A stretch of DNA of 64,000 nucleotides, taken from NCBI GenBank assembly GCA_019058445.1, contig JAHPZA010000006.1:640001-704000 (forward strand). Reading direction: 5' to 3'. Below the pieces are notes generated by a model. That model saw nothing but the letters and a program-made list of their open reading frames with translations. It made no database searches and was not told where the DNA came from. Shown in pieces: positions 36,766-45,267 of the stretch (its first letter is position 1; each line of letters begins with the position of its first letter). This DNA comes from Promethearchaeota archaeon (lineage in GTDB: Archaea > Asgardarchaeota > Lokiarchaeia > Sigyniarchaeales > SOKP01). Both the position numbers and the translations under genes were made by a program.

Positions 36766-37890
36766 TCAAGGACGTAAGGAATCTAAATATACATCCAAAT
36801 CTTTTATCTCATTGAATATAGGTAAATTTAGCTCTTTTTGGCTATATAATTGCATTATCCTCTTCTCTAAATTGTTAGTTGCTTCTTGAAGTCCAGAAAA
36901 ATCTCTATTAGAAATAAATGTTGTTAGATCAGATAGATTTAAATCATGATAGTTTTCTTCTACTTCATGAAAAAGGTTAAAATCGTAGGTACTAATGAGA
37001 TCTCCTTTATTTTGAGCAATGATTTCTGAGATCCAAATTTGTAATTCGGTGGCTGCATAACTAGCTAATAGGATATCCCTTTTATCACAAGCAGCATATA
37101 TCTTGTTAAAATATTCTTTCATATGTACTAGGACGTTTTTATTCAATATCTTTCGATTAGTTTTAATACTTTGTTGCTGACTTCTAATAAGCTTTCGAAT
37201 CTCTAACATAAGAGTTCTTCCAGTTGATAGTAATTTATCAAAATCATTAGAACTAACAAGGATTCTAATCATATTATCCAAATTTTTAGGTATGATGGGA
37301 AGTTGAAATACTTTTTGTAGATTTGAACCCTAATTTTTGGAATAATACACATTATTCAGCCATGATAAAGTAGCACAGATATTATTGATTAATCCCCATA
37401 AAGCCCACCGTGCAGTTAAAATATCATTCTTCACTTTGGCTAATTTTACTCGTTCAATGGAATAATCCATATTAAATTGACTCATTGCCCGCATAAAATT
37501 TCCTTCAGTATCTTCTTTTATCTTCTGAATTGATTTTTTTAATGAATTGAATCTTTCTAGATCTTGTTCATTTCTATAATAAAGAACTTTACAGTTCACA
37601 AAAATGTGGGCTGCAACACACCAGATTTTTAATTTATCTTTTTTAGCTGAAGCAATCTCTTCAGCTTCTTCCCAATCCATGGACCAAATGTCCACTGCCT
37701 TATCCTGAAAAATAAAGCTCCATTTCATTTGATTTTCTAAGCTAGTGATAGCATACATATCTAAATCAGAATAATCAGATTGTTTGCCTGTAGCTATAGA
37801 ACCATAAATAGCAATAATGGATATCTTTATACCATATTGCTCCACTACTCGTTTTGCGATTAATTCAGCTAATTCGTTTAAACTAGACAC
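36766..37890 (-). pseudogene. Kanamycin-nucleotidyltransferase-like gene interrupted by one in-frame TAG (37330-37332)
   Basis: YGSIATG...SDLDM nucleotidyltransferase motif. The track ORFs 37330..37890 and 36766..37281 are in the same frame: YYSKN*GSNLQKVFQLPIIPKNLDNMIR. Confidence 0.8.
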
Positions 37891-38045
37891 ACTACTCCCT
37901 TTTCAAATTTTTTGAGATAATAATTATCTAAAATCAGTTTTAATTTATTTATATCTCTAATTATTGTCCAATCAACAAGAATCCCTTTTTAATTATTTTC
38001 TATAAACTGACTTAAAGAAATTTTAGATTTTATTTGTTTATCTTT

Positions 38046-38876
38046 TCATGAGAAAATATATTTATCAAGCCAATATTTCTCATTAAACATAAATATGGCA
38101 TCGGCGGAGCTTACAAACTTTAATGATCTTAAAACATCAAATAGTAAGTAAAGTCCAAAATTTTCTCGGAATTTTCTTATAAGGATTCCTAATGTGAGTC
38201 CGTTGGGAGATAGCTTCCTTAATTCGTCGGGATTTCTACTTTGATAGGAATTAAAGGCATTTATGAAGTTAATTACCTCAGATGTACATAATTCCTTTAA
38301 GTTTTTATCTTTAAACCGAGCCAATTTAAATCCTTTATGTCTAAACAGTATCAATTCCAAAGAATGAACTTCATTATAAACCACACTTCTCTTATTCTTT
38401 GATTTTTTAAAATATTTCGCGCCAAAGCTACTAATCTTGTTCTCAAAATAAGGTGTAAAGTGTAAGGCATATAAAGGGGCCAATAATCCCTCTTTTGCAG
38501 CGTTCATATAATATACGCGACCTTGATAGATTTCATGTAAATAATTTTCAGCTGAAGAAGTATATACCCAATCTTCATTTTTTGGTTTTCTGTCAAATCC
38601 CTTCCCCTCAAGTACCCACAATACGAAATCTCCTTCCTGATTATATTCTTTTGTACGCTGAATTATTTCTGAGCTGCTGATCTTTGAATGTTGAATTTCA
38701 ATGACAATTTTTTTACCATTTTTTAACTCAACATAAATATCAGCTATTCTATTTCCAATTTTTATTTCTTGCTGAATGTTATTTATCTCATTATATACTG
38801 AAAGATTGTCATAAAAGAATTTCTTAAGTACAAGGTGATTTATTGTTTCTGAATGTTTTACATCCTCTAAAGTCAT
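38046..38876 (-). CDS. Competence CoiA-like PD-(D/E)xK nuclease-domain protein
   Basis: ETINHLVLK...RIADIYV...VIEIQHS...RTKEY...VLWV. Confidence 0.8.
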   Translation of the reverse strand: MTLEDVKHSETINHLVLKKFFYDNLSVYNEINNIQQEIKIGNRIADIYVELKNGKKIVIEIQHSKISSSEIIQRTKEYNQEGDFVLWVLEGKGFDRKPKNEDWVYTSSAENYLHEIYQGRVYYMNAAKEGLLAPLYALHFTPYFENKISSFGAKYFKKSKNKRSVVYNEVHSLELILFRHKGFKLARFKDKNLKELCTSEVINFINAFNSYQSRNPDELRKLSPNGLTLGILIRKFRENFGLYLLFDVLRSLKFVSSADAIFMFNEKYWLDKYIFS

Positions 38877-38951
38877 ATCTATTAATTCATTCTAATAACA
38901 ATTTTTTAAACTCACTGGTTTTATTAATGAGAATAAAAAAAGAAAAAATAT

Positions 38952-39150
38952 TTACAGCTCTGCTTGAGTGGTGTATCTTCAGCTAGGGAGAACCTTCACC
39001 GCTTCTGTCGAAAATACCTAGAATTTAGGGCTTTAATCCAGGTATAGATACACCTGCCTGCGACATTGATAAACCTAGTGAAAGAACAATGAGTAAAGCA
39101 AGAGCAGAAATCACGCGCTTATTTGCGTTCACTTGATCTCTACCTCTGTT
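38952..39150 (-). ncRNA. Candidate ~200-nt structured RNA (multi-stem, possible pseudoknots)
   Basis: Non-coding, locally GC-rich, several 9-10-bp complementary pairs with G-U wobbles that favour the minus strand, followed by a U-rich tract. Confidence 0.6.
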
Positions 39151-39252
39151 CTTAACGTATGGTTTTTTGTAGTAAAGTTCGTCTATTTTAATTAAAATAA
39201 AATTATTTAAACTCCTCCAAATAAAATCTGAACAGCAATTTAGCAGTTATGT

Positions 39253-39609
39253 TTATGCTATTAATGATAGACCTTGAACGTGGGGTGATTGATGATATTT
39301 CTTGTAATACGCTTCTTGAAATAAGTGATCCTTAATTTCATTTCTTAATGATTGATATCCCCTTCCTTTTAACACGGCTCTTATCTTTTTAGTAAGAAGA
39401 ATTTTGTTATTCATTGAAATTTCGTAAATAAATATCACATAAAAATTGGTTTTCTCCACTTTGTAAATATCTGCTACCATATGATCGAATACAGCTCTTA
39501 GAGTCTCCTTATATTCCATTTTCTGTCTCCAAAACCAATTAATATTGAACTTTATAAAGAAAAAATTTATTGTTAGGAAAAAATTCCCGTTTTTTCTAAA
39601 TAGTCCCAT
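39253..39609 (-). CDS. Hypothetical protein (true start probably MEYKETL)
   Basis: Open frame with GGAG just upstream of the internal ATG. Confidence 0.5.
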   Translation of the reverse strand: MGLFRKNGNFFLTINFFFIKFNINWFWRQKMEYKETLRAVFDHMVADIYKVEKTNFYVIFIYEISMNNKILLTKKIRAVLKGRGYQSLRNEIKDHLFQEAYYKKYHQSPHVQGLSLIA

Positions 39610-43974: not shown

Positions 43975-45267
43975 ATGGCTACTGATAAAAATTACTATAA
44001 TAAGACCCATACTCCCCAATCTGACCGATTAAGAGCACCATTGGAAGAGAATAAAACACAGATATTCACTGGGTTGATATGTGATTCTTGTAATTCTACA
44101 GATATTGTCGAGACAAGAGAAGGCTATGTATGTAGATATTGTGGAATGGTATTAGAGGGAAAAATAATTGTATTTAATAAACCTTATTTCTCAGATGTTC
44201 AGTATTATGCTAAGATGGGGGCAACACATATCGGAAATGCAAGAGAAAGACTTGCTCACGCCCACTCTAAAAAATTAACTCACTTACAAAAACTTCACTC
44301 AATTGAATCAAACGAAAAGGAGCTACTAACACATGCAAAAATCGAAATATCGAGAATTTTTACGTGTTTAAATCTGCCCCAAACATTAAAACAATTAGTA
44401 TATCATAAATTCATCAAAATCCGAACTGCGATTCGATCCGGGACCAAATATCGTGCTCCCCAAAAATTAGTACCTCTCACGATTTACTTTATTTGCAAAT
44501 TCGAAAAAATTTCTATTAATGAGGCCGATCTCTTAGAAGTTTCCAAAATTTCAAAAAAGGATTTTAATGCATTTAAGCTGCAAATCTTAAATTTTTTTCC
44601 CGAATACCTAGAAAGAGACAGGAAACAATACATCTTACAAAAAATCTTAGAACTTACGGAACATTTCAAGCTTGGTATGGAATTTTATTTTCAGTCCAAG
44701 AAAATCTTATTTCGGCTATGGGACAATATTAAAAATACGAAAGATGAAGTAATTGCTGGATTAGTAGCCTCGATATCAGTGCTATGTGCTTTTAAGAGTA
44801 AGGATGTGTCCGTTAGTGCCATATGCAATAAATTAGGAATCAAAATGAGCACAATTCAATCGCAAGTGAAAAGGCGTATTTTTGACCAATATCAAATTGC
44901 GGGTTTTACTACCCTCATAAAATCCTCTGAGCTACTTAAGAAAATAATTGGAAAAATGGGCTTGCTTACCACTCAACAAGAAAAAGTTGCCAATAAACAG
45001 AATAGTGATGAAATAGCTAAAAGAAAAACTGCTGAAATTGTTGAGATCAAACTTGGTGGAGCTCGAAAAACATGTAATCACCTTATGGATGTAGGACATT
45101 ATTTATTCGCCATTGCCAATGAAGAGAGGACTCCTGTCATGGTATCGTTAAAATCTTATGATATGAGTAATTTCTATTCTGACGCTAATATACGGAAATC
45201 TCTCCACGATAAAAAATCCGTTTTAGATAAGGAACAGCCTCTCTTTGAAGTGAAATTTATCAAATAA
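43975..45267 (+). CDS. Divergent transcription factor B (TFB/TFIIB)-like protein
   Basis: Zinc ribbon CDSCNSTDIVETREGYVCRYCGMVL followed by two cyclin-like repeats and a C-terminal extension. Confidence 0.8.
   Translation: MATDKNYYNKTHTPQSDRLRAPLEENKTQIFTGLICDSCNSTDIVETREGYVCRYCGMVLEGKIIVFNKPYFSDVQYYAKMGATHIGNARERLAHAHSKKLTHLQKLHSIESNEKELLTHAKIEISRIFTCLNLPQTLKQLVYHKFIKIRTAIRSGTKYRAPQKLVPLTIYFICKFEKISINEADLLEVSKISKKDFNAFKLQILNFFPEYLERDRKQYILQKILELTEHFKLGMEFYFQSKKILFRLWDNIKNTKDEVIAGLVASISVLCAFKSKDVSVSAICNKLGIKMSTIQSQVKRRIFDQYQIAGFTTLIKSSELLKKIIGKMGLLTTQQEKVANKQNSDEIAKRKTAEIVEIKLGGARKTCNHLMDVGHYLFAIANEERTPVMVSLKSYDMSNFYSDANIRKSLHDKKSVLDKEQPLFEVKFIK

Follow-up and report, generated by a model that had tools for sequence, protein, structure and literature searches.

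A divergent micro-gene of an archaeal small-peptide family as the probable source of a foldable intergenic region in a Promethearchaeota genome

The minus strand of a 64,000-nucleotide (nt) stretch of a Promethearchaeota archaeon genome (contig JAHPZA010000006.1; the whole stretch is called the window here) contains at positions 38952-39150 a foldable intergenic region, which a preliminary description had presented as a structured RNA of about 200 nt upstream of a CoiA-like nuclease gene. It was found that this region is most probably the transcription unit of a micro-gene, a third and divergent paralogue of a family of peptides of about 38 residues, and not a dedicated RNA gene. Sequence comparison showed that the whole unit is homologous to other members of this family and that the window copy has received an insertion of 33 nt. 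According to the proposed scheme, the transcript would run from a point downstream of GGAGTTTAAATA (39204-39215) to T-runs at 38935-38948; translation would begin at the GTG at 39132, and a TAA codon within the insertion would end the open reading frame (ORF) after 35 codons (…GVSIPGLKP), so that the ancestral tail (C)GEGSP with its stop would be left untranslated. The stems would be of three kinds by origin. One is a closing helix that joins codons 10-13 to the end of the 3′ untranslated region (UTR), and another is a hairpin over the G-V-S-I-P-G codons, both of them family-wide; the third kind consists of two helices (A and B) of the window copy only, through which the hairpin region would pair with the insertion and the 3′ UTR.

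The identification of the gene came from a six-frame search of its own genome, in which the 35-codon ORF (39025-39132, GTG start to TAA) found two paralogues with E-values of 7.2e-7 and 2.9e-6. These are ORFs of 38 and 40 residues, both ending in AGVSIPGCGEGSP at the stop codon. The family profile matches the window ORF at positions 2-32 with an E-value of 4.9e-11, while at the DNA level the window copy is only 55-59% identical to the other members. Its product would have a basic N-terminus, a hydrophobic stretch of 15 residues and then GVSIPGLKP. By eye, signal-like features can be discerned, namely the basic NANKR, followed by VISALALLIVLSLGL and by S-Q-A before G; this N-terminal part could be a Sec-type export signal or, equally possibly, a membrane anchor. 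Of the residues invariant or nearly invariant in the family (Y19, G20, G27, V28, S29, P31, G32, C33, E35 and P38), the window ORF keeps G20, G27, V28, S29, P31 and G32; E35 and P38 lie beyond the in-frame TAA. On sequence grounds it is a homologue, yet not a standard family member as it stands.

The family consensus has about 38 residues and ends in AGVSIPGCxExxP before the stop; a basic N-terminus and a hydrophobic segment are followed by a 12-residue tail, G-V-S-I-P-G-C-x-E-x-x-P. Members were found in 28 of 101 genomes of the same taxonomic family (one to three copies each) and, by profile search, in 38 of 161 genomes of the class (one to four copies). In a set of 5.8 billion proteins, 64 of 66 candidate proteins matched the family, most of them 38 residues long. 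The named records are "hypothetical protein" entries from Promethearchaeota only, such as EU529_09590, the others being unnamed, and their named sources are metagenome-assembled genomes of Promethearchaeota or Promethearchaeia. The modal gene length is 117 nt (24 of 34 distinct genes). Comparison of these 24 genes showed that the family is under coding selection: pairwise differences at codon positions 1, 2 and 3 number 3360, 1895 and 6104, and codons with a single difference are synonymous in 3243 cases and non-synonymous in 911. When 20 family peptides were compared with Pfam and NCBIfam, only signal-peptide-like matches were obtained, all below threshold, and the top score in the ESM Atlas was an uninformative 0.79. 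Judged by titles and the opening parts of abstracts, no paper found on small proteins and signal peptides of Asgard archaea concerns the peptide family.

The distribution of the family is patchy, with members in nine of the 13 genera of the taxonomic family (genomes G010-G084). In the two best-sampled genera, g2 and g11, the first search gave 0 of 31 genomes each, and the profile search gave weak matches in one of 42 and three of 54 genomes, respectively, many of these genomes being 95-100% complete. One copy (L064, G017:C64:3708-3821) carries an in-frame TAA within the hydrophobic segment and shows that breaks occur in other copies too. The "1 TAA" flags of genomes G033 and G063 arose where the profile extends one codon upstream of the start, and the genes there are unbroken. 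Analysis of the gene neighbourhood of 44 family loci revealed no conserved partner, the largest cluster comprising six loci. An ORF resembling signal peptidase I (L079, 2536-3309) lies less than 4 kb from the peptide gene in four of the 44 loci, all close kin, which is too few to call linkage.

The unit of the window copy has the layout seen in the family, with a TATA-like motif 71 nt upstream of the start codon and a T-run 34 nt past the ancestral TAG. The upstream motif, GGAGTTTAAATA at 39204-39215, resembles a BRE (B recognition element) and TATA box and may be an archaeal promoter; an identical motif is present upstream of L042, L076, L072, L056, L060 and L055, and 31 of the 34 family members have a TATA-like motif 40-100 nt before the start. 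A Shine-Dalgarno-like (SD) GAGGT (39142-39146) stands 9 nt before the GTG, and the 5′ UTR, AGAGGTAGAGATCAAGTG, is similar to those of L042 and L076, which likewise start with GTG. The 3′ UTR runs from AAGCAGAGC through a few bases to the T-runs, as it does in L068, L076, L040, L018 and L017. The U-rich tract that the preliminary description had placed at the minus-strand end was found as two T-runs at 38943-38948 and 38935-38941 (UUUUUUCUUUUUUU). A T-run occurs 6-74 nt past the stop in every family member shown, and because of this family-wide pattern and general knowledge of archaeal termination, these runs are taken as the putative terminator of the small gene. Alignment thus showed a unit homologous end to end with the peptide gene family. 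The neighbourhood of the window copy is unique: tblastx of window positions 34-44 kb against all family loci gave no common flanks.

The insertion was located at 39003-39035 by MAFFT alignment of the window copy with six relatives, all six of which have a single clean gap of 33 columns. It falls after the first letter of the Cys codon (T|GC; the relatives have GC or GT), and both the in-frame TAA (39025-39027) and the 3′ arm of helix B lie within it. Without these 33 nt the gene has the modal 117 nt and the usual tail. The region appears without indels in contigs of four sequencing runs from three studies, and therefore the insertion is not an assembly artefact; among the run contigs are those of relatives that differ at four of 161 and at 23 of 580 nt. 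No second copy of the insert was found in the genome at up to three mismatches. The best local match of the insert is to the gene end and 3′ UTR of L073 and L079, with p-values of 0.04-0.045 before correction for 34 comparisons, which is a hint only. Comparison with the paralogues places the stranded tail, consisting of the GC of the Cys codon, the codons of G-E-G-S-P and the ancestral stop TAG, at 38983-39002. Its six codons differ from those of the two intact paralogues at five and four nt, every difference being synonymous, and hence the tail was selected at the protein level for most of the history of the copy. Either the insertion would be young or the tail would still be in use. Among the variants listed, the strain variants in the ORF comprise a start change from GTG to ATG, three synonymous changes, S>C, L>I and K>T, a pattern that fits a gene.

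The pairings of the preliminary description were re-examined directly, and all seven were found on the minus strand where they had been placed. Three helices of 9-10 bp require G-U pairs on the minus strand only, which identifies that strand as the RNA strand. The fold of minus-strand 38952-39150 has an energy of -56.8 kcal/mol (z -2.05; six of 200 shuffles equal or better), while plus-strand 38930-39170 (241 nt) has a z of -0.01 (94 of 200). The signal is stronger in the 3′ half, 38966-39058 (z -2.60; three of 200), than in the 5′ half, 39059-39160 (z -0.40; 65 of 200). A perfect 9-bp helix arises in 29 of 500 dinucleotide shuffles of the region, and at least four helices of at least 9 bp, with G-U allowed, arise in 45 of 500. 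There are 16 Watson-Crick helices of 5 bp, where shuffles have 15.8 ± 3.6, and for this reason the two crossing pairs, which had been thought to suggest pseudoknots or kissing loops, and the 5-bp helix 39064-39068/39087-39091 are attributed to chance. The listed pairings are thus above chance in part only.

Searches for known RNAs bore out the earlier remark that no familiar hallmarks could be recognised, as no Rfam family reached its gathering score anywhere in the 64 kb. At E-values up to 10, the best hits in the region scored 13-19 bits against cut-offs of 35-111, the top one being sbrA with 18.5 bits against a cut-off of 45. A scan for tRNA and tmRNA found none, and a scan for sigma-70 promoters and intrinsic terminators gave no terminators, its model not being applicable to archaea. 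As a DNA query against its own genome and 60 relatives, the 301-nt region matched A/T-rich flanks only (query positions 242-301 or 1-22). When metagenomes were scanned with an 18-mer from the hairpin region, 23 loci were found, none of which matched beyond 19-21 nt; by blastn, a 901-nt stretch of the window gave alignments of just 19-21 nt with 11 of them and none with the remaining 12, and they are hence considered chance matches. Of the suggestion that the region encodes a novel noncoding RNA, the predicted self-contained minus-strand transcript ending at the U-tract is retained; the transcript is better explained as the mRNA of the small gene, given the coding substitution pattern (3243 against 911).

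One family-wide structural feature is the closing helix, the first of the pairings described earlier, which was found to be conserved and covarying in the relatives. Its 5′ arm, GCUCUUGCUU in codons 10-13 (39096-39105), pairs with the 3′ arm AAGCAGAGC (38957-38965), which lies 8 nt before the T-run. For 26 genes, codons 7-14 were paired with the 22 nt that immediately precede the T-run. The mean energy was -8.18 kcal/mol with a member's own 3′ UTR and -6.15 kcal/mol with those of other members, a difference reached in none of 5000 permutations; with close kin collapsed to 21 rows, the values were -7.17 and -5.47 kcal/mol (one of 5000). The control segments, codons 15-22 and 23-30, showed no effect (2579 and 4414 of 5000). 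In an alignment of seven sequences, five pairs are altered on both sides, which none of 500 shuffles reached, and 75% of cells pair, compared with 25-43% when the partner is slid. The compensatory changes include C-G to U-A at a Leu codon and G-C to A-U, and covariation across the family was thus shown. The window copy is in register with six relatives, core pairs holding in nearly all rows; its helix has an energy of -12.4 kcal/mol, and 8% of other members' 3′ UTRs are equally good. When 12 full mRNAs were aligned with MAFFT, their 3′ UTRs fell out of register, and RNAalifold therefore recovered only the hairpin core. The closing helix probably stabilises or gates the small mRNA.

The second family-wide element is a hairpin within the coding region, CAGGUGU-AUCU-AUACCUG (39039-39056), with a 7-bp stem and a 4-nt loop over codons 26-32 (A-G-V-S-I-P-G). 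It is found in loci L017, L018 and L040-L079, for example at L043:1501-1671. All seven pairs form in the window copy, where they compete with helices A and B. Across the family, 85.3% of cells are paired compared with 79.7% in shuffles, and the covariation score was reached by none of 500 shuffles. Pair 24-39 is UA in 10, AU in nine and other in 10 cases, and the second synonymous third-position pair is AU in 12, UA in five and other in 15 cases (33 distinct rows). These data are suggestive of an RNA element within the coding region, although the amino acids force much of the pairing.

The remaining long stems, helices A and B and the SD/start hairpin, are by these comparisons specific to the window copy, and they are tied to the insertion. 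Helix A joins GGUGUAUCU (39046-39054, codons G-V-S) and AGAUACACC in the 3′ UTR (38970-38978) by nine perfect pairs; the duplex has an energy of -14.6 kcal/mol, with z -2.92 and p 0.01 against shuffled 3′ UTRs. Pairing between hairpin region and 3′ UTR has a mean z of -0.53 in the family, and four of 28 other members have p-values of at most 0.05, so that helix A was dropped as a family-wide habit. Helix B joins AUACCUGGA (39037-39045, codons I-P-G) and UCUAGGUAU within the insertion (39014-39022) by nine pairs, one of them G-U; one of these pairs is lost without compensation through the variant 39016 A>C of runs X3 and X4. In the SD/start hairpin (39104-39143), 39134-39143 pair with codons 7-10 (39104-39113). 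As proposed earlier, this stem overlaps the closing helix, and the two are mutually exclusive. Its energy is -21.3 kcal/mol in the window copy and -6.0 to -14.5 kcal/mol in seven relatives, and the helix is not preserved in L042 or L076. Among the 12 element variants listed, eight hit paired positions of the minimum-energy fold, of which six break a pair, two keep it and none is compensated; the strain variants thus do not protect the copy-specific fold.

Several observations weigh against the interpretation as a micro-gene. Two of the most conserved positions of the family are lost in the window ORF, the invariant Tyr19 being Leu and the Cys33 codon being split, and the exact 35-residue sequence is absent from a collection of 15 billion proteins. 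Counted over GVSIPG and GEGSP with its stop, the copy differs from the two paralogues at nine and 11 positions in 36 nt, all synonymous, and synonymous-only differences in the tail are unlike an old pseudogene. The values for the 3′ half (z -2.60) and helix A (p 0.01) leave room for selection on RNA structure. About one family member in three lacks the closing helix or has a weak one, the helix lies outside the minimum-free-energy fold of the window copy, and its test omitted eight of the 34 family genes, whose 3′ UTRs are shorter than 22 nt. The variant tally, finally, rests on 12 element variants among those listed, 31 further variants standing outside it. For the window copy, a product still of use and a young pseudogene appear about equally probable.

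It is unlikely that coding is broken and that the copy is kept as a regulatory RNA, serving as decoy or sponge, or switching between the family hairpin and helices A and B; the actor would be the 3′ domain, with helices A and B and a four-way junction, or the retained elements of the family mRNA. The low z of the 3′ domain and the p-value of helix A favour this, as do the two mutually exclusive pairs of structures (family hairpin versus A and B, closing helix versus SD hairpin) and the lack of indels in the element in strains about 4% apart. However, the listed strain variants break helix B and others without a single compensation among eight, GTG is replaced by ATG at the start, and one in two changes within the ORF is synonymous, as in a gene. 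Moreover, no homologue of the copy-specific fold was found in 60 relatives, none of the 23 metagenome loci found with the 18-mer matches past 19-21 nt, and the z for the whole region is a modest -2.05.

Less probable still is the idea that the 33 nt are spliced out as a non-canonical mRNA intron, or bypassed in translation, and that the full 38-residue Cys peptide is made; if so, archaea would have an mRNA intron of a new kind or their first translational bypass. In the bypass of phage T4 gene 60, the take-off site is a GGA within a hairpin, and a GGA codon also stands ahead of the insert within a hairpin. The insert has exactly 33 nt, is in frame and splits T|GC, so that its removal restores the Cys codon and a gene of 117 nt; the tail past it differs from the paralogues only synonymously, and helices A and B fold the insert into a compact junction beside the family hairpin. 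A precedent is offered by the intron of the cbf5 mRNA of Crenarchaeota, which splits a codon after the first letter (PMC2738675). However, the junctions that would restore Cys have no bulge-helix-bulge (BHB), the central helix having three of four pairs and the outer and inner helices none, and the region's nine strict BHB-like candidates all fail to span the insert. There is no GGA landing codon past the insert, and landing on GGU would lose the Cys. No joined form was seen in the contigs of four runs, though contigs hide rare forms, and a plain DNA insertion accounts for the same facts. As candidates in their own right, a BHB intron at 39003-39035 was rejected on these pair counts (three of four central, no flanking pairs), and gene-60-like bypass was set aside as unsupported, there being no matching landing codon in the sequence.

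The downstream gene (ORF 38046-38876) is indeed CoiA-like, as had been described (PF06054, E 2.3e-14). That the region is a cis-acting leader or riboswitch of this gene, or an RNA partner of the nuclease, is scarcely credible. It does lie on the same strand, about 60 nt upstream, and the arrangement is kept in a related strain (X4 contig spanning 38600-39179). However, the two T-runs intervene, as does a separate TATA-like box outside the element, TTTAAAAAA (38902-38910, minus strand), 25 nt before the CoiA ATG. In genome G003 the closest CoiA orthologue (78% identity) has the same upstream ORF and then a 195-nt spacer without the small gene, in which the TATA-like stretch is conserved; the orthologue thus does without the element, which does not support the proposed leader. 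The co-occurrence check that had been suggested was run and gave no support, the element core being found in none of 60 relatives and CoiA-like genes in 42 of 61 genomes, the two sets largely overlapping. The suggested tie to the nuclease likewise found no support, since the relatives of the element stand in unrelated neighbourhoods, and the flanks of the other peptide-gene loci have nothing in common with those of the window copy.

On the minus strand, the CoiA-like gene (region 36766-38876) is followed by a nucleotidyltransferase-like ORF (37330-37890; Polbeta/NTP_transf_2, sub-threshold) and, beyond it, by an unassigned ORF of 171 codons (36766-37281). The orthologous region of G003 has a different gene content, and for this reason 36766-38876 looks like a variable, defence-island-like stretch. 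On the plus strand, 39277-39361 gave weak C/D-box-like Rfam matches (SNORD116, 19.2 bits, E 1.6; snoMe28S-Am2634, 18.7 bits, E 3). This segment has a UGAUGA box and a GGGG…CCCC terminal stem and lies antisense within an ORF of 118 codons (39253-39609); the matches, far below gathering scores, are probably due to chance. Further along, an ORF of 430 codons (43975-45267, plus strand) has an N-terminal TFIIB-type zinc ribbon (PF08271, E 0.0013, below cut-off).

If the region is a micro-gene, it follows that in AT-rich Asgard genomes a G+C-richer, foldable intergenic island can be a micro-gene rather than an RNA gene. The G+C content of 38900-39200 is 0.36, compared with about 30% in the genes of the window and 19-25% in neighbouring spacers, and the choice between the two was tested here by a six-frame search of the genome itself. 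The family would represent a conserved 12-residue Cys peptide, unannotated and putatively exported or anchored, in the closest archaeal kin of eukaryotes. Its covarying closing helix and coding hairpin are handles on the stabilisation and translation of tiny mRNAs, and the interrupted copy is a natural variant with the signal kept and the tail altered without Cys, which could help to reveal the role of the tail.

Comparison with known systems places these features in context. Archaeal BHB introns have two 3-nt bulges with a 4-bp helix between them, flanking helices and cuts between bulge residues 2 and 3, and those of tRNAs span 11-175 nt (PMC2738675). The present insert is similarly short, splits a codon and falls within this range of tRNA introns, but its junctions lack the motif. 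The Sec-exported pro-peptides of Gram-positive quorum sensing, Phr and AimP, are also encoded by short ORFs that are mostly export signal, and the present family would likewise release a tail of about 10 residues. The difference is that no match exceeds the curated cut-off: TIGR04429 (Phr_nterm) matches two of 20 family members with a best E of 0.048 and AimP one of 20 with E 0.17, both far below threshold. In addition, no receptor or processing gene is linked (largest neighbour cluster, six of 44 loci), the host is archaeal, and both export and cleavage are predicted.

Type I toxin mRNAs such as hok have fold-back pairing between their 5′ and 3′ parts. Like hok, the window copy is a gene for a small hydrophobic peptide whose mRNA could be closed by pairing of the 3′ end with an upstream segment, and its SD and start also lie inside a hairpin. 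It differs in that the closing helix pairs codons 10-13 and not the translation start, and in that the tail of the family's peptides shows strong conservation and the appearance of an exported segment, with nothing to suggest toxicity; no antisense RNA is known, no search having been aimed at one. From the other members of the Promethearchaeia peptide family, the window copy is distinguished by the split Cys codon, the stop at 35 codons, Leu in place of Tyr19, two additional 9-bp helices, the SD-sequestering hairpin and its unique neighbourhood. It shares with them the promoter motif, the 5′ UTR with GTG start (L042, L076), the basic and hydrophobic N-terminal part, G-V-S-I-P-G, the (C)G-E-G-S-P tail with its stop, AAGCAGAGC with the T-run, the closing helix and the coding hairpin.

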